From Mustelus asterias (taxonomy: Eukaryota): a stretch of DNA of 64,000 nucleotides. Positions 13,881 through 64,000 of the stretch are shown here, piece after piece (positions within the stretch are counted from its first letter, which is position 1; each line of letters begins with the position of its first letter). Location of the stretch: contig NC_135808.1 in NCBI RefSeq assembly GCF_964213995.1, positions 50,716,001 through 50,780,000 of the forward strand. Direction: 5' to 3'. A program made the position numbers and the translations under genes. The notes beneath the pieces are model-generated. The model saw nothing but the letters and a program-made list of their open reading frames with translations. It did no database searches and was not told where the DNA came from.

Positions 13881-13889
13881 GTGGTGCCT

Positions 13890-14922: not shown

Positions 14923-14927
14923 CCCCC

Positions 14928-31608: not shown

Positions 31609-31769
31609 CTTATCACTTACTGATAACCCGCGTGACCGTTATACAACAGTCCAAAGGCTACCGCCCGCACGAAACACCGCGCACCCGTTCAGCTTGCTTG
31701 GAGGTTGGTCATTGTCTGTACATTCCTGCAATGGGAGGATATCACATAATTTCCCAATTAGTTTCAGCA

Positions 31770-34395: not shown

Positions 34396-37300
34396 TTAAC
34401 TGTTTTGTTGTCCATTACATGTTTTCCGATTGGTGCCAGTGTATTCTTTCAACTGGGTCCAGTGTTTCCAGACGCCTCTGCCTTGCATATCTACACAGGC
34501 ACAGGTGTCTCCACTAATGATAACCTCATAGGGGCTTTTCCCTTCGGGGGCGAATCCAGGTTTTTCGGGTAAGGTTTTTACCGTAACCTTGCTGCCCGCC
34601 GGGGGTATCTCCGGGGTCTGTTCTAGTTCATTGTACTCATCGACCGCTATTTGTTTGTCCCATACTTTTTTCCGCATATCTTTTAATTGGGAGCTTAATT
34701 ATCATAGAATCATAGAAACCCTACAGTGCAGAAGGAGGCCATTCGGCCCATCCAGTCTGCACCGACCACAATCCCACCCAGGCCCTACCCCCACATATTT
34801 TACCCGCTAATCCCTCTAACCTACGCATCCCAAAACTCTAAGGGGCAATTTTTAAAAAATCTGGCCAATCAACCTAACTCGCACATCTTTGGACTGTGGG
34901 AGGAAACCGGAGCACCCTGAGGAAACCCACACAGATACGAGGAGAATGTGCAAACTCCACACAGACAGTGACCCGAGCCGGGAATCGAACCCGGGACCCT
35001 GAAGCTGTGAAGCAGCAGTGCTAACCACTGTGCTACCAGGCCGCCCTAATTCTAATACATATTGTCTAATCTTGTCCCGTAATGGGCCTCCATCTGTCCC
35101 CCCGGTAATGATGGACTCGGGCAGTTGCATAGCCCTTCCGGTCATTAGCTCATATGGTGTCAGCCCAGTGGTCCGATTTGTGGTGGCTCTGAGTTCCATT
35201 AATATGGCGGGTAATACTTCTGTCCATCTCTTTCCTGATTCCTGCATGGCCTTTGCCTAGGAGATCGTAAGTGTCCTATTCATACGTTCCACCATCCCCG
35301 AGCTTTGAGGGTGGTAGGGTATGTGAAATTTCTGTCTTATCCCCATCAGTTGACATGTGGTTTTTACAACCTTCCCCGTAAAGTGCGTGCCTTGATCGGA
35401 GTCTATTTGCAAAGGCACCCCCCATCTTGGGATAACTTCCTCAGCTAGTATTCTGGCCACTGTAGTGGCAGTACAATTTTTCATCGGGAATGCTTCTACC
35501 CATCTGGTGAATTGGTCAATAATTACCAAGCAGCAGGTTCTCCCGTGTGACTGCGGGAGAGGTCCTGGAAAGTCAACTTGCAGGTGTTCCCAGGGACCCT
35601 TAGGGCGAGGCTGGTGCCCCATCTTGATTTTTACGGGTCTTCCAGGGTTATACCGTGCACAGGTTATGCACCGGTGACAATATCGGGCAATGTCCCGTCC
35701 CATTCCTTTCCACCACCATTCCTTCCCCACACTGGTCACCGTGGCATCCCTCCCCACATGTGACAGCCCATGATGTAACCGCATCAGAGTATGCTGGATA
35801 CATTCTGGGGCTCGGACTTTATCATTTAATCTCCATCCCCCCCTCCTCCATCAGGTGTAGCTCCTTTTGAGTTTTCCCCCTCAGACGTTCTTCTTCAGGG
35901 GTATCAGCATGGAGCTGTGAGATGTCTATCGGGGTTTCGATTTTACTCGAGGCAGCTGGCAAGGCCGGCACTTCCCCTGTTTCCAAGGCAGCTCGTGCCG
36001 CTCTGTCGGCTGCCTGGTTTCCCTTAAACATATACCACTCAGGACTTTGCTTATCTGGTTCCTTGTGGTGTGCTTTTACCTTCAATACTGCGGCTTCCGA
36101 TGGGAGCTCGCTGGCTCCCAATAAGGTTGTTATTATCTGGCCATGTTTAATTGGAGTGCCTCCCATTGTGATAAATCCCCTTCTCCCCCAAACTGTCATA
36201 TAGTCATGTATAACTCCAAACGCATATCTACTGTCGGTGTGAATGTTGACCCTTTTCCCCACAGCCTCTGTAAAAGCCTGAGTCAAGGCTACCAGTTCCG
36301 CTACTTGCGCTGACATGCCTCCCTCTATTCTTCCTGCTAGAACAATTTGTAAATCCACATTCACTGTCGCCCATCCTGTTCATGGTGACCCATCTACATA
36401 TTTCCATGATCCATCCACAAATAGGACCATATCTGGTGCCTCCAGGGACACATCTTTTATTCTACCTTCGTCTACCTCCTCATCTACGTCCCCACAGGTG
36501 TGTGGGTCCCCTTCACCCAACATTCCTTCTGCGGGGTTCGTTCCCATGTCTCGTACAATGGTGATGGACTTAGTGGGTGGGAGAAGCACTGCCTCCCACT
36601 TTGCCCTTCTCACATTTGAGACAGACCGCAATTTTCCTGTGTTCAGCATTTCCACTAAGGTATGTTTGGTGTGCAAAACAATATTCCCCGTCATTATGAT
36701 GGGCTCACTGACCCTTACTGCCCATGCCGCTCAATCCAGTGCGGCTATACATCTGGGCAACCCGGCTACTGCGGGGCCCTCCGCTGTGGAATAATAACCC
36801 ACTGGCCGCTGCTTGTCCCCATGGACCTGTGTAACTACTGCCGAATAAAACCCCCCCTCATTATTACAATAGATGTGAAAATCTTTATTAGCGTTGGGCA
36901 GTCCAAGTCCCGGAGCTGTCATTAGTTCTGCTTTTAGTTTACGAGATGCCTCTTCCTGTTCTGATCCCCACTCTATAACCTCAAGAGCGGGTTTCCCCCC
37001 CTTTTATTAGCCGTGGAGGGAGTGCAGAGAAGGTTCACCCAGGTTGATACCAGAGATGAGGGGTGTTGATTATGAGGAGAGACTGAGCAGATTGGGTTTG
37101 TATTCGTTGGAATTTAGAAGGCTGAGGGGGGACCTTATAGAGACCTATAAGGTAATGAAGGGTCTGGATAGGGTAGAGGTGGAGAGATTCTTTCCACTTA
37201 GAAAGGAAACTAGAACTAGATGGCACAGCCTCAAAATAAAAGGGGGTCAGTTTAGGACAGAGTTGAGGAGGAACTTCTTCTCTCAGAGGGTGGTGAATCT

Positions 37301-38790
37301 CTGGAATTCTCTGCCCACTGAAGTGGTGGAGGCTACCTCATTGAATATGTTTAAATCACGGATAGATGGATTCCTGATCGGTAAGGGAATTAGGGGTTAT
37401 AGGGATCAGGCGGGTAAATGGAACTGATCCACTTCAGATCAGCCATGATCTTATTGAATGGCGGGGCAGGCTCGAGGGGCTAGATGGCCTACTCCTGCTC
37501 CTATTTCTTATGTTCATATGTTTTTTGTACTGGTTCGGCGAGCCTGGCAAATTCCAGTATAAAGTTGCGACTGTAATTAAACAGTCCCAAAACCTTCCTG
37601 ACCCCTCGGACAGTTACTGGTCTTGGCATTTGCTGAATGGACATTTTCCTGTCCAATGGCATTTCTTTGGTCCCCTGGGATATCAGGTGTCCCAAATATA
37701 ACACCTGCTCTTTCCCTATTTGGGCTTTCCTGGGGCTCGCCTTTAGTCCCTGTTCTTCTAAGTGTTTCAAGACTGAGTATAGCACCGTCTGATGTTCTGC
37801 TCTAGTTTCGGAGGCTATTAAGATATCATCTACATACTGCAGAATTGTGCTCCCTTTTGGGACTTCCACCTGTTCTAATATCTTACTCATTACCCGGTGA
37901 AATATAGCCGGGCTGTTATGGAAGCCGTGCGGGAGCCTAGTCCATGTGCACTGCTTATCGCCCACGGTAAATGCAAATTTATCTTGCGAATTAGGGTCCA
38001 GGGGAATGGACGACAAACCGTTGGCGATATCCAATCCCGTGAAGATTCCATGGGATGGTGACAACCCGTTTAAAATGGTGGAGGGGCGAGGCCACGATGG
38101 GGTGTAGCTTGGGGGTCACTTTATTTGAAGCTGTATAATCAATGGTTAATCTATAGCTCCCGTCCGGTTCAGACACCGGGCCAGGTGGGGGAGTTGGTGG
38201 TACGAGTGGTTTCCCGTAGGATCCCTCTCTTTACCAATCCCGTCGCAATTTCCTCGATGCCTTTGGGCTTAATCGGGTTTTGCCGATGTGGTTTATGTTC
38301 TGGCCCTACCACTATTATAGGGTCAATTTTGACGAATCCAGTATCTAGTTTCGTTTCCGCCCACACACCGGGGACGGAGGCGCAGATGGCGCCAAATCCA
38401 GTACCGTCTAACTGCCAGTCGCGTCCCGTTGCAGATGCTGCATGGATGGTCCCTAAATGGTTTACATATGTTCCTACCCTGTCTTTTCTCCCATCGGGGC
38501 GGGGCCAAATCAATTCACCTTTCCCACAATCTATTCAGACTTTGTATTCCTTCATTAGGTCATTTCCCATAATAGTTCCTTCATTATTTCTACATACGTA
38601 AAATCGCATAGATATATACAGGTTATTAATTTCTACTAGGTGGTTTCACTTAAGTAGGCAGGGGTCTTCTGTCCGTTAACACCCCTTATATAGATCATTT
38701 TATTGGTGGTGGGCAAGGGTAGATCAGTGATAGATATGGAGGCTCCCGTGTCCACCAGCATTTCACATTGCCTTCCCCCGACTAGTGCAG
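34396..38790 (-). pseudogene. pol: ERV pro-pol (disrupted)
   Basis: MLVDTGAS; LDIANG, WTRLPHGFHNSP, LQYVDDILIA; tether PVGYYS; RNase H LFVDGS, SAQVAEL, TDSRYAFG; IN HHGLSH..CITC, IDSDQGTHF, SSGMVERMN. Confidence 0.92.
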
Positions 38791-38842
38791 ACACGTAGAT
38801 TCTACCCTCTTTTGTGCCCAGGCTTGTGGAGGCTGCCTCCCG

Positions 38843-40140
38843 TCAATTCCCTCCCTCGTCAATGAGGGGAGGGCGAAGCAGTTGACTCGGTCTGCCGTGC
38901 TTGCTCCAACAGGTGGCCTCAGTGTGGCCAACCTTATTACAAAACAGGCAGGTAGGGGCTTTTCCACTGCCCCCCTTTGGAGCTCTACAGCCTCTGGCAA
39001 AGTGACCCGGTTTCCCACAATTATAGCACGCACCCTTGGGTTTAGCCCCCCCACTGTTTGCACTAACTGTTTCCTGTTTTATTCGTGGGTATGGTTTCTC
39101 ATCTGGTCCATCTCTAATTCCAGATGCCCATTCTACTAATTCATCATAAGCCTGGGTATTGAGAACTCCCATTTTAAGGATTTTCTGGTGAGCTGGCGAT
39201 AGCCCATCTTTAAATGCTTGGAAAAAGGTTCTATCTGTTCGGGTATTCCCGAATGTTCTTGGTATACTCTAAAGAGTCGCTCCCCAAATTCGGAGGCTCC
39301 TTCACCCCTTTGTTGTTTAATATTGGTAAGTCTGGACCAATTGGTTGGTGCATTACCCAAGACTCGTTGGACTTCCGCCTTAAACCGAGTAAATGACTCA
39401 ATCATTGCCTCGATCTCGGCGGTTGTCTCTGTCGAGTACGTCCACCTTCCGCCTCGGTAATCCAACCGAGCTTTGTCGGCGACATTAGCCTGGACCCCAC
39501 CGTCACCCATTCATCTCCACTTATCCCGCGGGCAAACAGCCCGTACCAACTGGTGTATATCCCGCAAATGTAATTGGTGTCCAACCCAAAGGGTGTCCAG
39601 TTCTGCCCAAAATCTGCTATTGTTACTCCGGGGCTGGGGCCTTCCCAGGGGTGCCAAAATCTGTTGTCTTTCACCTGGGGTAAAGGGTTTATATCGGGCA
39701 GTGGGATGCTGTAACGTCCCGGCCCGAGTTATGGGAGCGAGATCATGGACCTCTTCCTCATCAGGGTTTCCCACTGGTGCCGTGGGTTGTACGGCCGGCC
39801 CATAGGGAGGCAAGAATCCCCCGGCAGGGTCCTCTAAAAGTTGGTTCCGCTTCTCTAATTTGCTATTGCGTGTTTCCAACGTTTTAATTTTTGCTTTGTC
39901 GTCAGCCCATTTCTTACTCGAGACTGAGACCTGTCCAATTAATCCAGCCAATTGGTGAACTAAGAGAACCCCAATTTTCTTAGTTCTGTCTTTCTTTTCT
40001 TTTTCCAACCATTTTCGTTATTGGTCTAGTGGGTGGTCTAAATCCGATCCCCCTTTTATCATCTGTTTAATGAGTTTGTCCCTCTTAATTATATGTTCAG
40101 GTATCAGGGACCCCGGGCCCCACTGTCCTTGTCCCGCCAT
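38843..40140 (-). pseudogene. gag: ERV gag (disrupted)
   Basis: Starts MAGQGQWGPG; PPY/PTAP late-domain-like motifs; MHR-like IKQQRGEGASEFGERL; two CCHC knuckles CYNCGKPGHFARGC and CLFCNKVGHTEATC. Confidence 0.85.
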
Positions 40141-40632
40141 ATCATTGATAAGGTCATACTCACCACCTTGGAGTCTTCTAATCTCCTTTCTCGCTCTCTC
40201 CCTCCCAGGTTTCTCTTATCTGAGTTCGGTGATACCTGTCAGGGGTGATCAGATCCCTCCGTACCACCACTTACACAATATTTTTATTCAGCTGGCTTTC
40301 ACATGAAGGCTTTTCCTTCCACTCCGGGACCACTCAGACAGTCTCTATCGATCACTCATCACTCACGTCTGAACATCACACCTCAGGCAACCCTGACACC
40401 CATTTCAAATCCGAACATCAGCGTGGGAGATTCCTCCTCTTAACAGTCAGTTTACGGCAGGGTGTCAGAGCCAATTGCCTCCTTGTCCGTATGTGCTCAG
40501 TTCAGACGTCTTTCATCAGTTCAGACACTCTCTCATCACAGATGGTCACCCAATGTATTTTGACCCACTTCATCAAGTTCAGTAACTATTCCGGTCTCCC
40601 ATTCGTGGCCATTCGACTGGTCCCGTAAACAA

Positions 40633-40650
40633 TCCCGGGTTTCGGCACCA
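40633..40650 (-). promoter_or_regulatory. Primer binding site, tRNA-Phe
   Basis: Minus strand TGGTGCCGAAACCCGGGA, complementary to the vertebrate tRNA-Phe 3' end UCCCGGGUUUCGGCACCA. Confidence 0.92.
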
Positions 40651-40652
40651 TT

Positions 40653-41257
40653 CGTCGCAGGTAAAGATACCTCTGAGTCTATTCGTAGGTCAAAATACTT
40701 TGGTTTATTTGCACAATTGTGGGAGACCGTCCGATGCCTAACATGGCCTCAGATGTCTCAGCAAATACAGGCTAAACACATACATTTATACCCCACCTTG
40801 CACGTACGCAGTTTCCCAGGCTCACAGGTTCCCAGGCGGTTGCACATCTTCCTGTGTGAACCTTGCTGCCTTGGTGTTTTCTTCACGGTCATCCCAAGGC
40901 CGTGAGTGTTGTTGTTCTCTGTGAGCACAGGTGGGGTATCTTACTAACGTACAAAGTTACAGTCTTCGCACAAACAAGTTAATTGGCATACAACAATTTA
41001 TATACGTTTGTAGGTACTTGTATAATGTAATCGGTACAGGTTATGATGAATATATATGAAGGTATCATAATACGTCACAAAAGGCAGAGATATAGGCGTC
41101 CATTGTTACACAGCAATACATAATTAAAGAATACAAAATGGCGGATTAGCCACATTCTTGAACTGAAATACATACAACAGCTGTGCTCTTATCTGTTCTG
41201 GAAACATGAGCATGGAAACCCTAACGTAAACATGAGTTCTACAGTATTTCTCACACA
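40653..41257 (-). mobile_element. ERV 5' LTR (outer boundary approximate)
   Basis: Abuts the PBS. Minus-strand TATAAA near 40790 and AATAAA near 40706; TG start at 41255 or 41257. Confidence 0.7.
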
Positions 41258-45439: not shown

Positions 45440-45441
45440 TG

Positions 45442-47803
45442 TGGTGAACCATTGTTGGTTACCACCAGGAGTGCTGAGCCATGGTCTGGCCAGTACTATG
45501 AGTCTGTAGATATGTTACTGTTGGGGTTAGGGTTGGGCTGTTCTACCTGTTAATATCGTCCTATGGTACACCCCAGTTGACTCCGCCTCCTGGGAGAGGT
45601 ATAAAGGTCACTGCTCTGCCTGGTGACCCTTTAGTCTGGGATTGTATACTGCATATAGTAGCTCCGTTATTGTTGGTAATAAAAGCCTTTATTTCCCGGG
45701 TACATCCTGCCTCCCGTGTGATTTATCGCGCATCAATTTTATTGCCAACAAGTAAAATTTTTTTTCTTTAAAAAACAAAAGAAAACCATGGAGCAAATGC
45801 TGAAACCCGAGCAGCTTACGTTGGACCCACGTGCGGTGGGAGCATCGAACACTTTCGACCACTGGTTGAAGTGTTTCCAAGATTACCTCGACGCCTCCAC
45901 AGTGGTCAACAACGACGCCGACAGACTCCGGGTCCTCCACGCGAGGGTAAGCGACACTGTATACCTCGCGATCCGTGCAGCCACCGACTACAAAGGGGCC
46001 CTCGAGCTTCTCAAAAAGTGATACAACAAACCGCCGAATGAGATCCATGCTCGACACCTTCTAGCCACTCGACGGCGGCAGCCCGGCGAAACGACGGAAC
46101 AGTACGTGTGTGAACTTCAGCAGCTAGCCAGAGCCTGCAACTGCAAGTCAGTGTCGGCAGCCCAGTACATGAGCGACTTAGTTCGAGATGCGTTCGTGGC
46201 GGGAATCGGCTCGTCGTACATCCGCCTTCGGCTGTTGGAGCAAGGTAACCTCGATCTCACTAAAACCATAGAGTTAGCTGACGCTCTAGAAACGGCCTCC
46301 AAAAGTCTGGAGATGTACCCCGACGACCACGTGGGGACATTGTGGCAGGGGCAGTCACAGACCCCACTTCATTCAGTGGGACCGAAAAACTGCGCGATTG
46401 CGTTTCCAGCCTCGGACCTGACGACGGCAGCAGCTCCAGGTGGCCCGCGGTGTTACTTCTGTGGGGGGGTGAAACACCCTCGGCAGCGATGTCCAGCTAA
46501 AGCGGTGTTGTGCTCTGCTTGCGGCAAGAAGGGACATTATTCCAAAGTATGCCGGACCAAACCTCCATCCAAAAACAGCAGTGCGGCGTGTGACTCCCCG
46601 GAGCCGGCCTCCTTGTCGTCTGCGTCTTCAAGGTCTTCTACCACGTGCGATTCCAGGACGTCGCCATTCCGAACGACGGAGTCGCAAGACACGTGCGACC
46701 TGCAGGGGCCGCAGGTTTTGGCGCCATCGTCCACGTGCGACCTATGGGGGCAGCCATTTTGGTCGGCACCGACCGCGAATGACCAGCAGGGGTCGTCATC
46801 AACCATCTCAGCTGCCTGCAGTTGCACCCACGAACCAACGGTGGTGTTGATCATCCTGGACCAGGCCAAGCCTCACAGACTCGACAAGTCCATGATGGAC
46901 ATACAGGTAAACAAACGCCAGATTTATTGTTTGTTTAACAGCGGGAGCACGGAGAGCTTCATTCACCCTGACACCGTGAAGCGGTGTGGTTTCCAGATTC
47001 GGACTGTCAAGCAGACAATTTCGATGGCGTCAAGGTCCCGATCTGTCACCGTGCTAGGGAGCTGCGTTGTTAATCTGACGGTGCAGGGCACGATTTACGA
47101 GAACTTCAGGCTCCTTGTGTTACCGCACCTTTGCGCGCCGATACTCCTAGGACTAGATTTTATGGTCCACCTGAAGAGTGTAACCCTGCAGTATGATGGG
47201 CCACTCCCCCCGCTTTCAGTGGAAGACCCGCAGCCTCTAAATTGCCCAACGCGTTCCACATGTAGTCTCTCAACGATCAGGATTACCACACCCTCCCTAT
47301 TCCAGAATCTCGTGCCAGGCTGCAAGCCCATCGCAACAAAGAGCAGGCATTACAGCGCTGAGGATCGGATCTTCATTCGATCTGAAGTTCAGCGGCTCCT
47401 CAAGGAAGGGATCATCCAACCTAGCGCTAGTCCTTGGAGAGCGCAAGTCGTGGTGGTTAAGAATGGGAACAAACCCCGGATGGTCATAGACTATAGTCAG
47501 ACCATTAACAGATACACCATTGTTGGTTACCACCAGGAGTGCTGAGCCATGGTCTGGCCAGTACTATGAGTCTGTAGATATGTTACTGTTGGGGTTAGGG
47601 TTGGGCTGTTCTACCTGTTAATATAGTCCTATGGTACACCCCAGTTGGCTCCGCCTCCTGGGAGAGGTATAAAGGTCACTGCTCTGCCTGGTGACCCTTT
47701 AGTCTGGGATTGTATATTGTATATAGTAGCTCTGTTATTGTTGGCAATAAAAGCCTTTATTTCCCGGGTACATCCTGCCTCCCGTGTGATTTATCGCGCA
47801 TCA
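45442..47803 (+). mobile_element. Young Gypsy LTR retrotransposon, internally deleted (LTR 45442-45735, gag-pro-RT start, LTR 47516-47803)
   Basis: LTRs differ at about 6 of 288 positions. gag ATG at 45788 with one stop at 46019; CYFCGGVKH/CSACGKKGHYSKVC; LFNSGS protease; RT breaks at MVIDYSQTINRYT. Confidence 0.93.
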
Positions 47804-48364
47804 CCCAGGATATACTCCAAATGTTTAACCACTCACTTCCCCTGTCTCTATCTGTTTGCAGACTCTCTACCTCCTCTTTAGAACTTACTTTCCCACCTAT
47901 CTTAGTGTCAAAGAACAAAGAACAAAGAAAATTACAGCACAGGAACAGGCCCTTCGACCCTCTAAGCCTGCACTGACCATGCTGCTGTCATTGGGACATC
48001 AGCTCCATTCACTCCCTTCATCCAAGTCATTGATATGGATTGTGAATAGTTGTGGTCCCAGCACTGATTGTTCCAGAACTCCACTAATTACAGCTTCCCA
48101 ACCCCAAAACAATCATTTGTCCCCTCTCTCTAGTTTCTGTGAACGAACCAATCCTCTACAATGCTAATATGTTACCCACACATCATGAGCTTGTATCTTG
48201 TGTGGTAAGATTTGATGTGGCAATTTATAAAATACCTTTTGGAATTCCCTAAATATCACATCTACAAGTTCCCTTCATCCACTTTGTGACTTCCTCAAAA
48301 GTGGACAATCACACATTTATAACATAAAGAAACTGCTCCACATCGACCATGGTGTCCATGTCCT

Positions 48365-48597
48365 ACTGGACCCTCCAATAGGGACCAGTAAACATGGGCC
48401 TCCTTCCCACTGGAGCCTCCAATAGGGACCAGTAAACATGGGCCTCCTTCCCACTGGAGCCTCCAATAGGGAGCAGTAAACATGGGCCTCCTTCCCACTG
48501 GAGCCTCCAATAGGGACCAGTAAACATGGGCCTCCTTCCCACTGGAGCCTCCAATAGGGAGCAGTAAACATGGGCCTCCTTCCCACTGTAGCCTCCA
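48365..48597. repeat. 44-bp minisatellite, about 5 copies
   Basis: cctccaata recurs at 48372, 48416, 48460, 48504 and 48548. Confidence 0.95.
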
Positions 48598-48894
48598 GTA
48601 GCTGAGCTTCAAACTCCACATCCTATCCATCACGTAGGCCTCTTATTTCCATCTCCACAACGTTGTCCGTCTTTACACAACATCAGCCCTATGAGCACAG
48701 ATACCCTAATCCCTAACTCTATTATTCCGATATCCTCTCCCGGCTCCCTTCATCCGCACGCCATAAACCCCAACTTGTCCCAAATGCAGTGGGTCCGGTC
48801 CCTGTCTCACGCCAAGTGTCCTTCCAATACTACCCCTGACCTCATTGACCTATCACCCCTGCCCTCACTGATATATTACCCTTGGCCTCAGTGA

Positions 48895-49330
48895 CATAGG
48901 AATATAGAATCTTGAAGCAAGAGTCGGCCATTCGGCCCTTCTCCACCATTCATTTTGATCATGGCTGATCATCGAATTTAATATCCTGATCCGCCCTCTT
49001 CCTCTCATATCCCTTGATCCCTTTAGCCCCAAGAGCTATATCTAATTTCTTCTTGAAATCAGACAACGTTTTGGCCTCAACCACATTCTGTCAAAGTGAA
49101 TTCCACACATTCTCCACCCTCTTTGAGAAGAAATTTCTCCTCATCTCAGTTCTAAAAGGTTTACCCTTTATCTTCAAACTGTGACCCATAGTTCTGGACT
49201 CCCCACCAATGGGAACATTCTTTCTGATTCTACCCTGTCTAACACTAATAGAATTTTATAACTTTCTATGAGATCCCCTCTCATTCTTCTGAACTTCAGT
49301 GAATATAATCCTAATGAACTTAGTCTCTCC
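48895..49330 (-). mobile_element. CR1 3' fragment
   Basis: ggccattcggccc tail hairpin and C-terminal ORF2 motifs on the minus strand. Confidence 0.75.
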
Positions 49331-49829
49331 TGTTACCCCTGACCTCACTGCCCTCCAATTCTCTCCATGGCCTCACTCCTCCCTCCCTCTGCGTTCCTGC
49401 TGCAGACTCACATTCCCTCCCTCACCTTCCATCTTCTGACTCTGCTCTCCTGCCCATCGCTGCTTCCTTCATCCCACCATTGACAGCAGAGCCTTCAGAC
49501 ATCCAGGCCCTGCTCTCTGACCTCCCACCTCTAATCCCTCCCCCTCTCCAAGCCTCTCTCCCCATCAAACTCCATCCTTTCACCCAAGTCTTCAATCTCT
49601 CTTCCTAACGTTCCTCCACCCCCACCCCCTCCCACCCCTATTCCTTACTGCCGCTCTGTGACACATCTTGGGCTGTGTTGTACACGAAGGTGCTATATAA
49701 ATTCAGGTTCTGTGTGGATTTCGGTTGGGGTGAGAATTGGACACTGGTGAAGGCTCCTGCAGTCAAATATCCTGCCGACAGGTTCCAGAGTTCAACACAC
49801 AGAATGGGACATTGTGTAACGTAGAACTT

Positions 49830-52250
49830 TTTAATAATTTATTCATTTACGGGAAGTTGGTGTCACTGGCTACACCAGCATTTATTGCCCATCCTTAATT
49901 ACCCTGAGGAGATGGTGGTGAGCTGCCTTCTTGAACAGCTGCAGTCCATGAGGCGTAGGCACAACCACAGTGCTGTTAGGGAGGCAGTTCCAGGATTTTG
50001 ACCCAGCGACAGTGAAGGAATGGCACTATATTTCCAAGTCAGGATGGTGAGGGACTTGGAGGGGAATCTCCGGGTGGTTGTGTTCCCAGTGATCTGCATC
50101 TTTCCAGTTAGTAGTGGTTGTGGGTTTGGAAGGTGCTGCCTCAGGAACCTTGGTGAGTTCATGCAGGGCATCTTGTAGATGGTACACACGGCTGCCACTG
50201 TTCAATAGTGCTGGAGGAATTGAATGTTAGTGGAAGGGGAATCAATCAAGCGAGGCTGCTTTGTCCTGAATGATGTTGAGCTTCTTGAGTGTTGTTGGAG
50301 CTGCACTCATCCTGGGAAGTCGAGAGTATTCCATCACACTCCTGACTTGTGCTCTGTAGATGGTGGGGAGGCTTTGGGGAGCCATGAGGTGAGTTACTCT
50401 CCACAGAATTCCTAACCACTGACCTGCTCTTGTAACCACAGTATTTATATGGCTTTTCCTGTTCAGTTTTTGGTCAATCATAACAACCAGGATGTTGATA
50501 GTGGGGGATTCAGCGATGGTAATGACAATTAATGTCAAGGGGAGATGTTAAAATTCTCTCTTGTTGGAGATGGTCCTTGCCTGGCACTTGCGAGGTGTGA
50601 TTGTTACTTTCCACTTGTCACCCCAAGCCTGGATATTGTCCAGATCTTGCTGCATTTGGACATAGACTGCTTCAGTATCTGAGGAGTTGTGAATGGTGCT
50701 GAACATTGTGCAGTCATCAGTGAACATCCCCACTTCTGACCTTATGATGGAGGGATGGTCATTGATGAAGCAGCTGAAGATGGTTGGGCCGAGGACACTA
50801 CCCTGAGGAACTCCTGCAGTGATGTCCTGGGGCAATCTCAGATTGAAATCCTAGAACCACAACCATCTACCTTTGTGCTGGGTGTGACTCCAACCAGTGG
50901 AGTTTTCCCCTGATTTCCATGGGTTCCAGTTTTACGAGGGCTCCTTGATGCCACTCTCGGTCAGATGCTGCCTTGATGTCAAGGGCAGTCACTCTCACCT
51001 CACCTCTGGGGTTCAGCTCTTTTGTCCATGTCTGAACCAAGGCTGTAATGAGGTCAGGAGCTGAGTGACCCTGGTGGAACCCAGACTGAGTGTCAGTGAG
51101 CAGGTTATTGCTGATTACAGCTGTTAGAATGTGTCATCGACAGTTCTATCAATCTCTTTGCTGATGATGCAGAGTAGACTGATGGGGCGGGAATTGGCCA
51201 GAATAGATTTGTCCTGTTTTTTGGTATACAGATCATACCTGTACAATTTTCCACATTTCCGGATAGATGCCAGTGTTGTAGCTGTACTGGAACAGCTTGG
51301 CTGGGGACGAGGGAGGTTCTGGAGCACAAATCTTCAGGACTATTGCTGGATTATTATCGGGACCCAGAGTCTTTGCAGTATCAGCCTTATCTTTTCCACT
51401 AATGTGCTGGGTTCCGCCATCATTGAGGATGGGGATATTTGTGGAGCCTCCTCCTCCAGTGAGTTGTTTAATTGTCCACCACCATTCACGGCTGAATGTG
51501 GCAGGACTGCAGAGCTTAGATCTGATCCATTGGTTATGGGATGGTTTAGCTCTGCCTATCACTTGCTGCTTCTGCTGTTTGACACACAGTCCTGTGTTGT
51601 AGCTTCACCAGGTTAACACCTCATTTTTCAGTACATCTGCTGTTGCTCCTGCCATGCCCTCCTGCGCTCTTCATTGAACCAGGGTTGATCCCCAGGCTGG
51701 GTGGTAATGGTAGAGTGGGGGATATGCCGGGCCATGAGGTTACAGATTGTGGTTGAGTACAATTCTGCTGCTGCTGATGGCCCACAGTGCCTCATGGATG
51801 CCCAGTTTTGAGTTGCTAGATCTGTTTGAAATCGATCCCATTTAGCACGGTGGCAGTGCCACACAACACGATGGAGGGTATCCTCAATGTGAAGATGGGA
51901 TTTTATCTCCACAAGGACTGTGCGGTGGTCACTCCTACCGATACTGTCATGGACAGATGCATCTGCGGCAGGCAGGTTGGTGAGGATGAGGTCGAGTATG
52001 TTTCTCCCTCTTGTTGGTTCCCTCACCACCTGCCGCAGTCCCAGTCTAGCAGCTATGTCCTTTAGGACCCGGCCAGCTCGGTGTGTGGTGGTGCTACCGA
52101 GTAACTCTTGGTGATGGACATTGAAGTCCCCACCCAGAGTACACTCTGTGTCCTTGCCACCCTCAGTGCTTCATCCAAGTGCTGTTCAACATGGAGGAGA
52201 ACTGATTCATCAGCTGAGGGGGTTATGGTATTTAGTTTCCTTGTCCATGT
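49830..52250 (-). mobile_element. Decayed APE-RT LINE, counterpart of 8985-12150 without the SINEs
   Basis: VREPTRGRNILDLILTN, GVPQGSVLGPTIFSCFIND, MFTDDC. Confidence 0.9.
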
Positions 52251-53134
52251 TTGACATGTACTGAGAGACTACATGGAGTCTGGAATGTTGTTGAGGATTC
52301 CCAGGATAACTCCCTCCTGACTGTATCCCACTGTGCCTTCTGTGCTGGGAGATTGGAGGTAGTGGACACAGTTCACCATTTTCTCCCGTCTCAGTAACAA
52401 ACATCCAGCTGCTCTGAGCTCCTTCTTTCACTTCCTCTGTTGGTTACGTTTCAATCTTCCGATCTGACAGTCTTTGCAGTTATTTTTGACACTGGGGATT
52501 TGTGCTGTGGTCTGAATCTCTAACAATAACTGTCCAATCAGTGAAAAGAACAGCAGCTCAGAGCAGTCAGGACTGAGGAGCCAGGCTCACTGGGAAACAC
52601 ATTGGGAAGATCAAAGCCATTGGTCTTCAGCTCCCGATACAAACTCCATCCCTCCCCCTGAGCACTGTCTGCTGCTCAACCAGATTCTCGACAACATTGG
52701 CCTCATCTTTGACCCCGATCTGACCCCCCATATCCTCCACATCACAAAGACCAGCCTCTTCCCCCGGGAATCGGAATGAGCTGCCTACACAGGAGAGTTT
52801 TCACAAACAGGGAGAGAAGAGGCAAAGACTTGGGGATAGGAGAGACAGATGGAGGAAGCTCAGTTTGAACATTTTCAATTGGCTCCCCCGCAGCCTCAAC
52901 AGCTTTTTTTCAGGGAGAAAGTTCCAGATTTCCACCAGTCTCCAAGTGACGAAGTGTTTCCTGATCTCACCCCTGAAGGGCTGGGCTGGAATTTGAAGAT
53001 TCAGTGACCTTGTTCATTCCAATAACATTGGCTCAATTTCCCATCATGCCTTCATCTCTACATTTGTCCATTCTCTAGCTAATAATGAATGTTTTAACTT
53101 CAATCTCAGTCAAATCATTTCATTCACCCCACTT

Positions 53135-55148
53135 CAGGTGTAGTGAGAGACACAGTGCAGTAAAACAGTATTGACCGTTGCCTAGTGACAGGTGTAGTGA
53201 GAGACACGGTGCAGTAAAACAGTATTGACCGTTTCCTAGTGACAGGTGTAGTGAGAGACACAGTGCAGTAAAACAGTATTGACCGTTTCCTAGTGACAGG
53301 TGTAGTGAGAGACACAGTGCAGTAAAACAGTATTGACCGTTGCCTAGTGACAGGTGTAGTGAGAGACATGGTGCAGTAAAACAGTATTGACCGTTTCCTA
53401 GTGACAGGTGTAGTGAGAGACACGGTGCAGTAAAACAGTATTGACCGTTTCCTAGTGACAGGTGTAGTGAGTGACACAGTGCAGTAAAACAGTATTGACC
53501 GTTTCCTAGTGACAGGTGTAGTGAAAGACACAGTGAAGTAAAACAGTATTGACCGTTTCCTAGTGACAGGTGTAGTGAGTGACACAGTGCAGTAAAACAG
53601 TATTGACCGTTTCCTAGTGACAGGTGTAGTGAGAGACACAGTGCAGTAAAACAGTATTGACCGTTTCCTAGTGACAGGTGTAGTGAGAGACACGGCGCAG
53701 TAAAACAGTATTGACCGTTTCCTAGTGACAGTTGTAGTGAGTGACACAGTGTAGTAAAACAGTATTGACCGTTTCCTAGTGACAGGTGTAGTGAGTGACA
53801 CAGTGCAGTAAAACAGTATTGACCGTTTCCTAGTGACAGATGTCGTGAGTGACACAGTGCAGTAAAACAGTATTGACCGTTTCCTAGTGACAGGTGTAGT
53901 GAGAGACACAGTGCAGTAAAACGGTATTGACCGTTTCCTAGTGACAGGTGTAGTGAGTGACACAGCGCAGTAAAACGGTATTGACCGTTTCCTAGTGACA
54001 GGTGTAGTGAGAGACACGGTGCAGTAAAATGGTATTGACCGTTTCCTAGTGACAGGTGTAGTGAGTGACACGGTGCAGTAAAACAGTATTGACCGTTTCC
54101 TAGTGACAGGTGTAGTGAGTGACACAGTGCAGTAAAACAGTATTGACCGTTTCCTAGTGACAGGTGTAGTGAGAGACACGGCGCAGTAAAACAGTATTGA
54201 CCGTTTCCTAGTGACAGTTGTAGTGAGTGACACAGTGTAGTAAAACAGTATTGACCGTTTCCTAGTGACAGGTGTAGTGAGTGACACAGTGCAGTAAAAC
54301 AGTATTGACCGTTTCCTAGTGACAGATGTCGTGAGTGACACAGTGCAGTAAAACAGTATTGACCGTTTCCTAGTGACAGGTGTAGTGAGAGACACAGTGC
54401 AGTAAAACGGTATTGACCGTTTCCTAGTGACAGGTGTAGTGAGTGACACAGCGCAGTAAAACGGTATTGACCGTTTCCTAGTGACAGGTGTAGTGAGAGA
54501 CACGGTGCAGTAAAATGGTATTGACCGTTTCCTAGTGACAGGTGTAGTGAGAGACACAGTGCAGTAAAACAGTATTGACCGTTTCCTAGTGACAGGTGTA
54601 GTGAGTGACACGGTGCAGTAAAACAGTATTGACCGTTTCCTAGTGACAGGTGTAGTGAGTGACACAGTGCAGTAAAACAGTATTGACCGTTTCCTAGTGA
54701 CAGGTGTAGTGAGTGACACGGTGCAGTAAAACAGTATTGACCGTTTCCTAGTGACAGGTGTAGTGAGTGACACGGTGCAGTAAAACAGTATTGACCGTTT
54801 CCTAGTGACAGGTGTAGTGAGAGACACAGTGCAGTAAAACAGTATTGACCGTTTCCTAGTGACAGGTGTAGTGAGTGACACGGTGCAGTAAAACAGTATT
54901 GACCGTTTCCTAGTGACAGGTGTAGTGAGAGACACAGTGCAGTAAAACAGTATTGACCGTTTCCTCGTGACAGGTGTAGTGAGAGACACAGTGCAGTAAA
55001 ACATTATTGACTGTTTCCTAGTGACAGGTGTAGTGAGTGACACAGTGCAGTAAAACAGTATTGACCGTTTCCTAGTGACAGGTGTAGTGAGAGACATAGT
55101 GCAGTAAAATGGTATTAACCGTTTCCTGGTGTCAAGTGTAGTGAGTGA
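53135..55148. repeat. 54-bp minisatellite, about 37 units
   Basis: Unit caggtgtagtgag(a/t)gacac(a/g)gtgcagtaaaacagtattgaccgtttcctagtga, strict 54-bp period. Confidence 0.98.
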
Positions 55149-56188
55149 GAGGGAAAAATTTAGATTGGGGACTCAAAATGTCACTCACTGAATTGTTTCA
55201 AACAATTAAAAAGGTGAAAATGAATTCATTTGCTGCAAATCGCTAAAGCTTTCATCCAGGAGAGAGAGAGAGAGATCGTGAGAGACAGAGAGAGAGAGAG
55301 AGAGGGAGCGAGAGCATGAGAGAGGGCAAGTGAGTGACAGACCGAGAGGGTTCCCCTCGGGGCGTTCTTGAGCAGTGACAGGCAGGGACTGAGGAAATGG
55401 GAGCTTCGGCTGTTTAGATTGTTCCTGTCGGTGGAAGTCTCCAAGATTCCTCCCACCCCCTCCACTACTACTTGCAGCTTTGTTTTGAGTCTGAAAGTTT
55501 AATGTTGTTCATATAATTGTTATCAGAATGGAAATATACATATCTTTCTATTTGTGTGTGTTTGTGTACAATGAAGAATTTGTGTGTGTGAGCTTTCATG
55601 TGTTTCCTTCCCTAATTTCTCATTTGTGTGTGAAGTTTCAGCAATTTGAAGCTTCACAATGTGGATAATGAGTTGGATTCAAGGACAATATAATGACACA
55701 AAGCAAAGTTTGAAGTGAAAAGGTTTGAGTTGAGATTTCTGTCCAGAAAGCAGAGTTTGATTGTTCTCTAAAGATACACCAGCTTTTCCCTGTGTTGAAA
55801 ATGAAGCAGCTTTGCAGGAGCCTCTTGCAGACGAACACAGAGTGAACTCTTTGCAACAACAGCTTAAACTTTCAGATTGCTGAATCCATTCCCCTGAGCA
55901 GAATGCACCTTGTGTCTTTATTTCCAGAGAACCACAAATGGAACAAGATTGCCAGCAGCATTAAGACTCTGAGAATTGATCTGAAGATTTTTATTCCCAC
56001 AGCATGGTCATGGTTTAGAACCAGGTGGCACAGTGGGACCTGGGTTTGATTCCCGGTTTGGGTCACTGTCTGTGTGGAGTTTGCACATTGGTTTAGAACC
56101 TTTACTTTATGTTGAAAGAAAATGATTTAACCCCTTCAGGGCCAATGGTATCTTTTGCTTGGGGACAAGAGGTCTGATATGGACACGC

Positions 56189-56535
56189 TGATCAAGGGTC
56201 TTATATAGCTGCATCATTATCCCCGGACTCCTAAACTCAGTCCCTCGATTGATGAAGGTCAGCACACCATATGCCTTCTTAACCACCTCCTCTACCTGCG
56301 AGGCCGATTTAAGAGTCCTATGGACCCGGACCCCAAGGTCCTTCTGATCCTCTACACTGCTAAGAGTCTTACCCTTGATATTATACTCCTTCATCCCATT
56401 TGACCTGCCAAAATGGACCACTACACATTTATCCGGGTTGAAGTCCATCTGCCACTTCTTCGCCCAGTCTTGCATCCTATCTATGTCACGCTGCAGCTTC
56501 TGACATCCCTCCAAACTATCCACAACACCACCAAC
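56189..56535 (-). mobile_element. CR1 RT fragment (same subfamily as 25934-26927), next to a partial SINE at about 56025-56090
   Basis: VGGVVDSLEGCQKLQRDIDRMQDW. Confidence 0.88.
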
Positions 56536-59500
56536 ATGTGTTGGTAAACATGTGGGATTTTCAATCTGGATACAAAGCCACACACACCAGGAAAAGGGAG
56601 TTTCAGTTTTGAAAGTGGAAATTATAATTCTTAGAAAGTTTAAAGATTTGAGCTTTGGGTCCTGATCAAGTTCTCAACAGGAAATGTTTATTTTAAAAGG
56701 TTTGACAACAATTGACACAAATCCAAATGCTGAAAGCTTCTGTGCTGAAGGAAGAGTTTAAAATGTGTTTGTCTCTTCCCAAAATATAAACCCGAAAGCT
56801 TGAAGTTTGTCAGAAATGTAACTTGTATCAGAGTTAAAGCAGGCAGCTCAACAACAAAACTATTCGGATCTGGAATCATTTTAAAATGTAAACATCACCA
56901 GCAACAATCTCCAGAGTTAGTTTCCAGAGAGTAGAATGTTGTTTGAGGTGTTAAGAACCGCGCTGATGTTAAATGTGAGAGGATCTCAAAGCTCAGAATG
57001 GGAACATGGAACATTGGTTCTAAGTGGTGTCGATTTTCACTCTGGTATCCTGTGAGGAAAAGTGTGTGAACCAGGGAGAAATAGTCCAGTCTTTGTGTGA
57101 ACAATTAATACAGAATATTCATCCAGGTAAAAGGCAAAGAAACAACGAGCTCTATAATACACGACAATATATTTAACTACACTGAGGGCTAGACACACAC
57201 ACTATTACATGAAGCTACCCCTTTGTTCTCAATCACCTACATTTCCTGAACACTGAGATGTCCCTTTGTTCCAAAACAACATCCAATATTATGTAACTCT
57301 GTGAGCTAAATCCAGTGAATAATTACCACACACAGGTTATGTGTCAGCGTTCGGGAAAACTGTCTTCAGTTTCAGTGAAGGTGAAACCTGCTGCTTCTTT
57401 TCAGGAGACAGTTTCTGCAGCTGAGTGTGTGCTGATGTTAGCTGTGTCTGTGTCTGTCTCCCCTTTTCCCCAGTCATTGTGCTATGGATATATCATTCTT
57501 TCCCTTTGATGTTACCCACCCTGTGGAATCGGCTTTGGGCATTTCCGTGTCGATTTCCTTATCCCTCCACTTTGAAGTTATCTTTTCTAAACCCCATTGC
57601 TTTCCTCAGGTACCTCAGTAAACACTTGCTTTTCTCACTGAGATGCCAATTCACATCTCTTCAGACATCTCCCTGTTTTATCCCAATGTCATTTGTTTAT
57701 TTTCATTTTCCCCAATTCTTAACAGAGGGGAAGGTGATAAAGACACAAAACATGTTAATGTCTGGACTTCCTCAGAGTCGTGTCCTCGGCCCAACAATCT
57801 TCAGCTGCTTCATCAATGAACTTCCCTCCATCATAAGGTCAGAAGTGGGGATGTTCGCTGATGACTGCACAATGTTCAGCATCATTCATGACTCCTCAGA
57901 TACTGAAGCAGTCCATGTTCAAATGCAGTAAGACCTGGACAATATCCAGGCTTGGGCTGACAAGTGGCAAGTAACATTCACGCCACACAAATGCCAGGCA
58001 ATGACCATCACCAATAAGAGACACTCTAATGCCCTTTGACATTCAATGGTGTTACCATCACTGAATCCCCCACTGTCAACATCCTTGGGGTCACCATTGA
58101 CCAGAAACTCAATTGAACTCACCAGATAAACACAGTGGCTACAAGAGCAGGTCAGAGGCAAGGAATACTGCGGTGAGTAACTCATCTCCTGACTCCCCAA
58201 AGCCTATTCACCATCTACAAGTCAGGAGTGTGATGGAATACTCCCCACTTGCCTGGATGGGTGCAGCTCCAACAACAATCAAGAAGCTTGGCAATCCCGT
58301 CAAAAAAAAGCCCACTTGATTGGCACCACATCTACAAACATTCAATCCCTCCAGCACCGACGCTCAGTAGCAGCAGTGTGTACTATCTACAAGATGCACT
58401 GCAGCAATTCACCAAAAATCCTGAGACAGCACCTTCCAAATCGACGACCACTTCCATCTAGAAGGACAAGGGCAGCAGATACATGGGAACACACCACCTG
58501 CAAGTTCATCTCCAAGCCACTCACTGACCTGACTTGGAAATATATCGCCGTTCCTTCACAGTTGCTGGGTTAAAATCCTGGAATTCCCTCCCTAGTGGCA
58601 TTGTGGGTCAACCCACAGCCCGTGGGCTGCAGTGATTCAAGAAGGCAGCTCAGCACCACCTTCTCAAGGGCAACTAGGGATGGGCAATAACTGCTGGCCA
58701 GCCAGCAATGCCATGTCCCATGAATGAATGAAAAAAAGTCAAATCGTCCTGATTTCTATTTTAAAAATATTCTGAGTCGAGGCCTGAGGCCTGCTGCTGC
58801 CACTAACTTTTACAGTTTTGTATTTTACATTTTATTTCTGCCCTGCTCTGATTTTTAATATTTGAACTCATTTTGTATTTTCTCACCTGATCCACACTGA
58901 TCTTAACCCAGCTGTGATTGTGCTCTGATTCATTCAGAAGAAGAATCAGGGGTGAGCTGTTTTTCCAGATTGTGTTTTCTCTCTGGACTGGCCACACAAC
59001 TGCTGTTCAGACTCAATCTTTTGTTTCTCCACTTTCTCAAGCTAGAATATTAAAATAAGTTGTTTCTTGTTTATTACAGGTACTGTTCTACCGCATTCTG
59101 TGGTGTTGCCGGCGTTGGAATGGGGTAGGCACAGTAAGTAGTCTCACAACACCAGGTTAAAGTCCACCAGGTTTATTTGGTAGCACGAGCTTTCGGAGCG
59201 CTGCTCCTTCATCACCTGATGCATTCTGTGAGCCTTGGTCTACAGACCAAGTCGCTGAGGAATCTTATCTGGTCTGCTCACCTGAAGCATTAGAAGATGA
59301 AGTTTAATTGATGGACATAACAGCTGATTGATGACAGATGTGAAGACATCATCAAGAGCTCCGTCAACAAGCTGAATATTACAAAGTCTGCTTCACATTG
59401 AGGTCCCTGTGGGAAGAACTGAGATTTGTTTTGGGACAGACAGTGTCACAGTCTTCACAAGACTGGAATGGAGCCAGAAATCCAGGTTAAAGAGACATTG

Positions 59501-62500
59501 TTTCAGAGACTGAGTGCTGCAGCCAAGGTGGAATAGTCACCCAGGGACAACAGGAGGAAGGGTTAGAAACAGAAACGTTTAAACAAAAGTTTATTTATTA
59601 ATGCAACAATTAGTCTTACATTAACGCTGCAATGAAGTTACTGTGAAAATCACCTCGTCGCCACACTCTGACGCCTGTTTGGGTACACTGAGGGAGAATT
59701 TAGCATGGCCAATACTCCTAACCAGCACATCTTGCAGACAGTGGGAGGAAACCGGAGCACCCGGAGGAAACCCACACAGACACGGGGAGAACATGCAGAC
59801 TCAGCACAGACTGTGACCCAAGATGAGAATCGAACCCGGTTCCCTGGCCCTGTGAGGCATCAGTGCTAATCACTGTGCCACCGTATCACCCCTTAAGTGA
59901 CTGACTGTAGTGTTCACCCATTGAGGTTACTCAGCAACTTGGGCATGTGTGTACCCAGGGGAGGGTAACGTGTACCAATTCTGGGGGAGCTGTCATGGAA
60001 CAGAGCAAATTGGGGTTATCGTTTGTGTTTAAACAAACATCCGACTGTCTTCTATTCTTCAGATATATATAGAGTGCTTTCTCCTTTCAATAAAGTTATC
60101 TTTCTTCCTTTTCATACACATTATCTTTCTTATATATTCTTTTTATCATTATTCAATAAAATGGTTGTTTTAACACAATACTTGTCCCAGTCGCTCATTC
60201 CTGTTCCGTCCAGAGTCCGGTTCTGAACCTCAGTGAGACTCTGAAAGGAACTCTCACCGCTCCTTACATGAAAACACTTTATTGGACTGGAAAGTCCCTC
60301 CAGACAAACTGAACCAGATAAGTTGCTGACTATTGTCTGTGTAAAAGGTTCTGAGCAAATGATTCAGGGTCAGAGATGGAGTTCGGGAAAAAGGACACAA
60401 CATACAAACTACTGAAGAGACCTGAATTTAATAATCTGGCCATCAGCTCTGACATTGGAACTAGATAGGGGGAGATAAGCAAAGATCCAGAGTGAGAGAC
60501 CTCCCCACCCCCCACACCTCCTTTGACATGAAATGGTTAATATGGCCGAAAGAGTAAGAAAACAGTTTTTTAAACGATCGAGGCAATAGAGAAACTGACT
60601 TGAAGAGAATCGTGGCCAGAAGGAATAAAAAACAAAAAATGAGAAGGAATCTGTGTTTGAGACAATTGAAGGGTCTGGAAAAATAATTTTTCCCAACAAC
60701 TGACCACAAGTTGGGTTCAGGTAAAGGGAGAGCTGGACAAAGGATGGGTGGGTGTATTAGTGAGTGTATTAATCAGCGACACAAAGTAGGAACACAGGAT
60801 TAACACCATGATGACAGGCAGAGCTGGGAGCCTCACTGGAAGTGAAGATACTGGGCCATTGAAAGAGAGGAGAAGAAGCTACATTGTAGAGTTGTGTAGA
60901 CAGCTTCAGGAATTGAGGTCTGAGCTCCCACAGCAGCAGGAGGAGTGGAATGAAATGAGGGGGAGCGACTCCCCCAGGACATGCCAGAGTGAGGGATAAG
61001 GTAGTGGTTAAGGGAGCACTGGAATGCCCGGGATTTACCCTCCAATGATGGCAAGGACCAGGATGTTCCAATCGGGAGCCTGGAGGTGAGCGACAATTTG
61101 ACCAGCCTCGTCCTTACCTTATTGGCTGATGGGGCTACAGAAAAGTGACCACACTTGTGCCCCCTGGGTAAGAAAAGAGTCAGGAGGAGTGTGAGTGACA
61201 GAGCAGGAAGTGAATTCAATGTCAGACATACAACTTCAGGGGGAAAGTAGACCAGAGGGGTTCCAACTCATTAATATGACTGACTCACAGTCTGAAGGGA
61301 GGGGATGGGACATGTTGTCTCAGGAATTGATAGATAATGTTAGGACAGATATTGAAGATATAAGATTTAGTACGGTGCCTCCACACACATATCAGACTGT
61401 GGAGAAATTCCATATTATCAATGTACAGGAAAACTGACAGGAATTAGTAGTTACACAGCCCGTGACAGGAGCTGGGAGAAACACAATCACATTTCTGATC
61501 AGTTTATCACAGGAAGATAATGACGGAACATATCAGGGACAGAGGGACAGAAACCTCTTGAAGTTTCTGTCTTCAAGTCAGAAAGACTTGAAGACTTTCA
61601 AGACCGTCCAAACCTCCCCTACACACTGCTGCATTCTCACAGGAGATTGCTTTCTACCTCATAGAACCCCGACAGTGCAGGAGGCCAATCGACCCAGCTA
61701 ATCTGCACCGACAACAATCCTCCCCAGCCCCTATCCCCATAACCCCATTTATTCACCCTGCTAATCCCTCTAACCTACACATCTTGGGACACTCATGGTC
61801 AATTTATCTTGGCCAATCAATCTAACCTGCACATCTTTGGAGTGTTGGAGGATACTGGAGCACCCGGAGGAAACCCACACAGACACCGGGAGAATGTGCA
61901 AACTCCACACAGTCACACCAGGCCGGAATTGAACCCAGGTCCCTGGCGCTGTGAGGCAGCAGTGCTAACCACTGAGCCATTGTGCCTCCCGAGTCATTTA
62001 TTTCACACACAAACACAGAAAATGCTGGAAAATCTCAGCAGGTCTGACAGCATCTGTGGAGAGAGAGCAGGGCCAACGTTTCAAGCCTAGAGTCTTGAGG
62101 GCGAGCGACTACCCAGGAGATGCCAGAGTGAGGGATAAGGTAATGGTTCAGCGGGAACCGGAACGCCCGGGATTTGTTTCAGATTTCAGCAGACGCAGTA
62201 TTTTGCTTTTATCTTAGACATCTATTTTATTGAATCTTTATTTAACCAGGTGAGTCAGTTGAGAACCAATTCTCATTTACAACAACAACCTGACCAAGAG
62301 GCTATCGCCACAGCAACAGAAATGACAAAATACAATTGATTGAAAGATTAAAAACAATCCAACCCAAATTAGCAGTGACAGAGAATTGACAGTTTAGTCA
62401 GTACAAGGATCAGTTAACAGAGATTTAACCTTTCAGTGAAAGGTTTCCATGGACAGGATGAGATTCTTATCCGCAGGATTAGAGACTGACATTAATCACA

Positions 62501-62914
62501 CTTTCTGCTACAGATCCCTGACTCCATTACGGTGACAAACTCTCATCGTGTGGGTCCGACCCTCACTGGTTATGTATTCAGTCCAAGGTGGGACAGGATG
62601 TTAAACATCGACGCTGCCCCAGACCGAATGTCTCGGGGAGCAGTGGAAAGAACCCTGACCACAACCAGAAAGTTGATGGAACAAAGCAATCGAACAATCC
62701 CAAGGGGAAGGGGGCAGGTGAACCTGGCCACAGGAAAGACTAGGAAACTGGAGGATTCAGCAAGAAATCGAGGGGAGATGGTGAGAATGCAGAATAAATG
62801 GAGGGAAGTAGGGAGGGTGACAGCAGCTGGTGAAACTGTTACAGTTTAATAGTTAGTCTGTGTATTTGCTGTTATCAGAGAGCTGTTGTTATCCAAAGTG
62901 GTGCAGATGCTCAT

Positions 62915-64000
62915 TGTAATAACTGGAGGAGACTCGATTTGGAAATAACTAACTAAAGGCTTTATTGATGAGAACTATTTACAATGAAGGGTTTAACAGC
63001 ACAACGATACAGGTCTACTCCCAACAACATCCTGACTCCAACTGAAGCCTCCAGCCCCAGGAATGATCACCCTCACTCCCGATTGGCCCAATATCACATC
63101 CTCACACTCCATTGGCTCCAGCCTGGTCATGTGGCCCGTGAAGGATTGCCCCTGAAAGGGGCCAGGCTCACACACTCCTTCCCCCGTAACATCTTGGACT
63201 CTCTATGATAAAACACAAAGTAAAACAGTTAACACATAGGCAGAGAAACAACAATATTACAGAAGGGACACCAGGGAAAGACAGTTCATAATGTCAGCTG
63301 GTCCAGAGATTTCCAGAACCTTGCGGAACGCTGCAACTCTGTCAGGGGCTCTTCAGCAGCCATCGACACGGGATCCACTGATGGGGTGGGCGTGCTAACC
63401 ACCTCTGGAGCTAGGCCCTGGACGGCCCTTTCCTCTGACTCACCCACCCAAGCCAGAGGCTGCCTTGGCCTCACCATGGACATGGAGCTGTCTTGTTCAG
63501 AGGCTGGTACACACAAACTGGATACAGGGCCCACTTGCTCAGCTCCTGGAACTGGCTCTACTCTCTTGCGTAGGTGGCCAACATGCTCCTTAACTCAACG
63601 GCCCTGTGTCTCCCCCAAATATGAGACTGGTCCCGTCTTCTCCACAACTCTCCCTGGTGCCCAGGTGGGTCCGCCACCCAAATTCCCTCTCAACATGAGA
63701 TCGCCATCATTAAACAATCTGTCCCCTTTCTGAGAGTCACAATATTCTTTCTGAGAGGCTTGCCGAGCCTCCACCCCCCCCGACAAATTTGGAGACACTA
63801 AATCTAAACAGGTACACAGGCACCGACCCATTAACAACTCTGCAGGTGTGACCTCGGCATGACCCCAGTGATGGCGTGAGGTGTAGTGTTGTATGACAGC
63901 AAATAACTGCCCAATCGCAATGGTCACAGTCTATGAGCCTTCTTCACATGGAGCGGTGAACGTCAGCATGGCTCGCTCCACCAACCCATTCGAGGCAGGA
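62915..64000 (-). mobile_element. Inverted copy of the Gypsy integrase/3' LTR
   Basis: Reverse complement of about 1785-2873; LTR at 62915-63174. Confidence 0.92.

Follow-up and report, generated by a model that had tools for sequence, protein, structure and literature searches.

A truncated retrotransposon in place of a missing kappa light-chain cluster in the shark Mustelus asterias

The kappa array and the closest described systems

The minicluster arrangement of shark antibody genes is regarded as ancestral, and multigene families of this kind follow birth-and-death evolution, in which members are duplicated, exchange sequence as mosaics with their paralogs, and disappear. To our knowledge, the loss of single shark clusters is rarely visible at base resolution. 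Shark kappa miniclusters have been described as nurse shark NS4 and horn shark type III, together with their copy number and pseudogenes (PMC2193156, PMC5192425, PMC12227049). Here, we analyzed a stretch of 64,000 nucleotides from Mustelus asterias (the window; C8:50716001-50780000, where C8 is the contig NC_135808.1) and compared 964 kb around it. The window holds one intact kappa gene and, facing it, the upstream region of a second cluster whose coding part is missing, with a truncated long terminal repeat (LTR) retrotransposon in its place.

Genome searches placed the kappa genes of this assembly in one array of about 940 kb on a single scaffold, with 22 constant (C) exons, 21 leaders (L) and 18 variable (V) exons in mostly alternating orientation. 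All C exons and leader-bearing loci were located within 50.17-51.09 Mb of C8. The repeat unit is about 75 kb long and consists of two head-to-head clusters, B (minus strand) and A (plus strand), which share a core of about 15 kb and are unlike outside it. Compared with the shark kappa miniclusters already described, the clusters are resolved here as head-to-head pairs in tandem followed by an inverted block. The nurse shark paper reports about 10% joined genes and pseudogenes with stop codons, whereas all 18 V exons of the present array have open frames without a single stop-codon pseudogene, none is germline-joined, and the losses are deletions. Zebrafish immunoglobulin light-chain clusters, known for inversional rearrangement, are also closely linked and in opposite orientations (PMC3014032). 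Unlike in the zebrafish clusters, V and joining (J) segments share one orientation inside each shark cluster, and the deletion breakpoints found here do not lie at recombination signal sequences (RSS). The array shows the same features as other birth-and-death families, with the extra detail that all four independent losses (4/4) affect one position of the pair. No published description of this array or of the deletion was found in the literature searched, a scope outside which most subscription journals fell. The base-resolved cluster loss is a new case of a process already known from other genomes.

The missing cluster and the element at the gap

The right arm of the window (47804-64000, minus strand) corresponds, by collinearity with its paralogs, to the surviving upstream region of a deleted A-position cluster, from about 0.9-1.1 kb before the leader outward. 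Both flanks of the gap were collinear with all seven A-position paralogs (7/7), each of which carries a cluster between them. On the left, positions 22000-45439 match the intact-unit spacer in order until 5.4-6.0 kb beyond the C exon of the A cluster; on the right, collinearity restarts at 47804, 0.9-1.1 kb ahead of the leader position. Measured against the seven A units, the missing span amounts to 13,746-18,146 bp and includes the promoter, L, V, J, C and 5-6 kb downstream. A preliminary description of this DNA had seen no V, J or C past 28515, and our searches agree: blastn at word size 7 recovered no promoter, L, L-V intron, V, J or start of the J-C intron over 28515-64000, and the top tblastn matches of V and C proteins in the same interval reached E=0.23 (V) and E=0.22 (C). 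The lost L, V, J and C were found neither between the flanks nor displaced in the assembly, where the V and C matches all belong to other clusters of C8. These comparisons support the view that a convergent kappa cluster once stood at the right arm and that its coding part is gone.

The gap is filled by a truncated element of 2,364 bp (45440-47803, plus strand), and both flanks are met exactly at LTR ends. The element is a putative member of the Gypsy type, whose hallmark is the position of the integrase. It starts with a complete 5′ LTR of 296 bp (45440-45735, TG..CA), continues with gag, protease and the start of the reverse transcriptase (RT), where it is cut off (45736-47517; Pfam aspartyl protease), and ends with an LTR without its first 8 bases (47516-47803), which shares a 2 bp microhomology with RT at the joint. 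The first base of the 5′ LTR is the left deletion breakpoint and lies inside the 3′ tail of a long interspersed nuclear element (LINE). At 8/8 paralogous sites, this tail runs on unbroken where the window changes to the first LTR base. The right deletion breakpoint falls on the last base of the second LTR; homology breaks off precisely there, between 47803 and 47804, and all 21 paralogous sites are empty (21/21).

The element family is abundant in the genome, with 7331 first-look candidates, of which 40 were scored at ≥95%. Thirty-nine other genomic copies were 95-97% identical over positions 1-2078 of the query, and intact copies measure 4.66-4.71 kb, with TG..CA LTRs and the order gag-protease-RT. 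Among 16 copies fetched, those with both LTRs carried a perfect 5 bp target duplication (14/14). The window element has none, as its flanks differ at 2/5 bases and derive from two sites separated by 14-18 kb. The ends of the element define the deletion: the flanks lie 13.7-18.1 kb closer than in the paralogs, the joints fall on the LTR termini and the target duplication is mismatched.

The tail-to-tail spacer to the left of the element (24000-45439) is in inverted orientation, collinear with intact units, and includes a block of N at 28365-28514. A fragmented endogenous-retrovirus-like stretch, recognized by visual inspection of frames resembling gag, pol and env, lies on its minus strand, at about 30500-41000. 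This stretch was rejected as a cause of the deletion since it is common to the intact units, and it is therefore older than the unit duplications.

Self-comparison of the window paired the left arm (1784-13404, plus strand) in inverted orientation with 64000-47804 of the right arm. By self-comparison, alignment and paralog painting, the left arm belongs to the intact kappa cluster of unit 8 (A position) and forms its upstream region. The inverted upstream copy of about 11.6 kb announced in the preliminary description is thus present on the minus strand, and the mirror is longer than first described, outrunning the window over at least 58 kb (C8:50671589-50729404 versus C8:50828950-50763804). 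The match stops 959 bp from the leader ATG at 14363, close to the 1 kb given earlier. Global alignment separated two layers of identity: 97.8% over 1784-8448 (6491/6638 aligned columns) and 97.6% over 8447-9696, then 86% over 9697-10946 and a patchy match onward to 13404 (78-94% in well-aligned bins, with large indels). Kilobases at 97% identity place the arm match far beyond chance. An additional block of 4.4 kb (52772-57203) is present in the right arm and not in the left; it holds a 54 bp tandem repeat in 37 copies (53135-55145), and related blocks were seen in other A-position copies. Upstream of the last cluster, an expansion of this 54 bp repeat occupies about 28 kb (C8:51043148-51070945).

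Over 49300-51500, the right arm differed by 2.3-2.7% from the A clusters of five other units (A2, A4, A5, A6, A7) and by 13% from the left arm of the window. This closer kinship with other A clusters explains the two identity layers of the mirror. The last 530 bp of the right arm were 5.4-5.7% from the four closest paralogs, themselves 0-1.9% apart, and other genome-wide matches of its proximal part did not exceed 95% among the best 40 scored. On these distances, the right arm is a distinct paralog and not a duplicate of another assembled copy. The earlier proposal of a remnant of a convergent sister cluster without its coding part therefore holds for the loss itself, given the collinear flanks, but not for the kinship, as the arm is not a recent sister of the window gene. 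That proposal had also overlooked the cause, the LTR at whose end the homology breaks off.

Possible routes to the deletion

We consider it likely that two retrotransposons of the same family flanked the cluster and then collapsed to one, deleting it. The array would have grown through duplication of the head-to-head pair of about 75 kb, and a block of about 140 kb would then have been inverted, or copied inverted, via exchange in the V-J region common to opposite-facing clusters, which would place the right arm on the minus strand. Two elements would have inserted in matching orientation, the first 5-6 kb past C and the second about 0.9 kb ahead of the leader. Recombination between the two elements, or a single microhomology-joined deletion from the RT of the first into the LTR of the second, would finally have removed the promoter, L, V, J and C, leaving a remnant that would not function as an antibody gene.

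Deletion of host DNA between same-direction LTRs has a precedent at the wheat locus 5B2, in a paper that also cites work on Arabidopsis and rice (PMC7156093). At the wheat locus, as here, each breakpoint falls in LTR sequence of the same direction, and the host DNA in between has disappeared. Unlike the wheat case, the remnant consists here of a 5′ LTR-gag-protease-RT stub and an LTR minus 8 bases and is neither a whole chimeric element nor a solo LTR, and the state before the deletion is reconstructed from paralogs instead of an orthologous allele. In the shark array itself, one B-position cluster carries in its J-C intron a solo LTR of this retrotransposon family, flanked by a perfect 5 bp duplication (C8:50990814-50991110); LTR-LTR recombination has therefore occurred in this array. 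Private changes were counted at 27/2067 sites in the 5′ LTR and body of the window element and at 0/288 sites in the 3′ LTR (roughly p=0.07 as estimated, with a lower LTR rate allowed for), a difference which weakly suggests two ages.

Several observations weigh against this collapse of two elements. Zero private changes were also found in 5/28 LTRs of intact copies. The two LTRs of the window differ at 6/288 sites, against a mean of 5.6 within intact elements and 6.2 between elements; such a difference is typical of both situations, so that a two-insertion origin is not demonstrable from it, and the family is too star-like to assign the two halves of the element to donors by LTR genealogy. 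No paralog of the 964 kb carries this family at either insertion site, and hence no intermediate was seen. Furthermore, the internal RT-to-LTR joint is non-homologous, and a simple LTR-LTR crossover therefore needs a second deletion.

The LTR divergence, typical of a single element, would fit equally a single complementary DNA whose two ends integrated 14-18 kb from each other and thereby deleted the cluster, with the RT-to-LTR deletion occurring later. Such an event would require one insertion instead of two and would account for the base precision of both outer ends, and there are documented cases of aberrant retroviral integration accompanied by host deletions (PMC5041404). However, in that paper the aberrant end is often truncated and the events arise under drug or mutant integrase, the 14/14 intact copies examined here integrated normally, and the asymmetry of private changes leans slightly toward two ages. 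We regard this route as unlikely and keep the collapse of two flanking elements as the preferred explanation.

An assembly artefact would imply either that the assembler jumped between two real elements around an intact cluster, or that a misplaced haplotig was joined at the N block. The locus lends itself to such errors: it is a tandem array at 97-98% identity, the body of the element is a high-copy repeat, and the sole N block of the 964 kb falls in the window. Moreover, a unit of 4.4 kb is repeated three times at 99.9% identity in the right edge of the inverted block (C8:50877467-50890562), where the local structure may be very recent or mis-assembled. Against an artefact, the right arm has no twin in view of the distances given above; it does not show the pattern expected of a haplotig or duplicated contig, near-identity to another assembled copy together with a junction at a gap. 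The V and C matches are all on C8, with none on small contigs. The N block and the deletion are 17 kb apart, 9/9 B paralogs are collinear with the flanks of the block (anchor spacing of 399 bp versus 343-768 bp), and orientation switches about 12 kb before the block; this flank collinearity led us to reject the N block both as a mis-join and as a hiding place of the lost cluster. In addition, an overlap assembler would not invent the non-homologous RT-to-LTR joint. Taking both sides into account, an artefact appears highly improbable.

Public data were limited to short contigs from the best 4 of 18 runs (X15-X18; 3 samples, 1 study), with word shares of 0.42-0.49. Since other copies in the assembly alone give a share of 0.62, these runs may not contain the window haplotype. 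One contig (X15, depth 20.7) was identical to 47779-47930 across the right joint, with 25 bases on the LTR side, under the threshold of 31 bases. No contig over the internal RT-to-LTR joint was present among the 32 of 376 matches listed, nor any over the left joint among the 32 matches listed; as records are filtered and rare variants drop out of contigs, no inference was drawn from either.

The least probable route is that the cluster was first deleted by end joining or RAG cutting and that the element was captured at the scar or inserted later, for although the neighbouring unit lost its L-V-J-C by a clean deletion of 12.3 kb without LTR and a perfect signal joint at C8:50402777 suggests RAG activity on the array, an ordinary later insertion leaves a 5 bp duplication and would not strike the exact scar, and the breakpoints are far from any RSS, about 0.9 kb before the leader and 5-6 kb past C. 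A RAG-mediated germline deletion was likewise rejected as a candidate, since the breakpoints do not coincide with RSS heptamers, being located 0.9-1.1 kb ahead of L and 5.4-6.0 kb beyond C.

The inverted block, the intact gene and the pattern of loss

Eight units follow each other in tandem, after which orientation flips within the window's own cluster. By paralog painting, this cluster is a hybrid, of A type to about 14,820 and of B type from about 16,500, and the switch zone (14820-16500) is the probable left edge of an inverted block of about 140 kb reaching C8:50871643. The right arm is an A-position upstream region inside this block and is paired head-to-head with the intact cluster at C8:50791487, beyond the window. 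At its right end (C8:50871643-50892828), the block lacks a reciprocal junction, and a simple inversion followed by a deletion is for this reason indistinguishable from an inverted duplication. This right edge (C8:50871644-50892828) is a nest of LTR elements, one of which abuts the collinear flank exactly at its LTR end.

The intact kappa gene of the window, on the plus strand, has the minicluster layout, with one L-V, one J and one C exon, all oriented alike and with open frames. It comprises a leader exon (14363-14411), a V exon with an open frame (14598-14922; Pfam V-set, E=1e-16), in which V extends to 14894 and is followed by an RSS with a 12-bp spacer (14895-14922), a J segment preceded by an RSS with a 23-bp spacer (15498-15571, RSS at 15498-15536) and a C-kappa exon with an open frame (22510-22838), 79-91% identical to shark proteins labelled kappa or kappa-like. 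Judged by such labels, nearly all C-domain matches at 83-91% are kappa-like, lambda-like labels being carried by one nurse shark match and three weaker ones. V and J are unjoined, and both RSS are intact. An odd stretch of complementarity-determining region 1 and framework region 2 with an extra cysteine (14689-14715) is common to the window V and the paralog A1 (C8:50206355), and the upstream regions of the two genes differ by 0-1.4% over 9500-14500. Together, these similarities suggest long-range copying between the window gene and A1, 525 kb apart.

A perfect 23-RSS/12-RSS signal joint was observed at C8:50402777-50402778, in the V-J spacer of the cluster B4, and suggests that RAG may have acted on the array; no reciprocal joined VJ gene was present among the 18 V exons. 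RAG was rejected as a cause of the inversion, because V and J of the window are unjoined with intact RSS and the sole signal joint is in a cluster outside the inverted block.

The A cluster of the next unit is also gone (C8:50828950), through the clean 12.3 kb deletion, which has an overlap of about 1 bp, no LTR and breakpoints unlike those of the window. Judged from these junctions, the two deletions are independent events. Three further A clusters (C8:50282259, 50507936 and 50582666) have L, J and C without V, and their junction, from the L-V intron into a 61 bp repeat, is identical, which indicates one deletion copied by unit duplication and not three errors. Another A-position cluster (C8:50977574) is reduced to a C exon with an open frame; no promoter, L, V or J was found in the 41 kb before it. 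In total, B positions are complete in 12/12 cases, and A positions are damaged or gone in 6/12, through 4 independent deletions. With all four at position A, the two-sided chance is 1 in 8 and not significant, and the one-sided loss is only suggestive. It would be weakened if the inverted block arose by simple inversion and later deletion, as a B cluster would then also have been lost at the right end.

The cluster loss is resolved to single bases and has a probable agent, and the adjoining unit offers a second, independent case. As the mechanism is well known elsewhere, the surprise is modest; what deserves follow-up is that the losses fall on one position of the pair. Two junctions testable by polymerase chain reaction bear on whether kappa gene number varies among individuals. 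A more speculative reading, which we find doubtful, is that of an asymmetric two-gene unit in which B would be protected and A repeatedly discarded by deletion, with retrotransposon ends as the scissors in at least one case. If true, it would imply a position-dependent constraint, either a shared control element or selection on the geometry of the pair, and presence/absence polymorphism of antibody genes between sharks would be possible.

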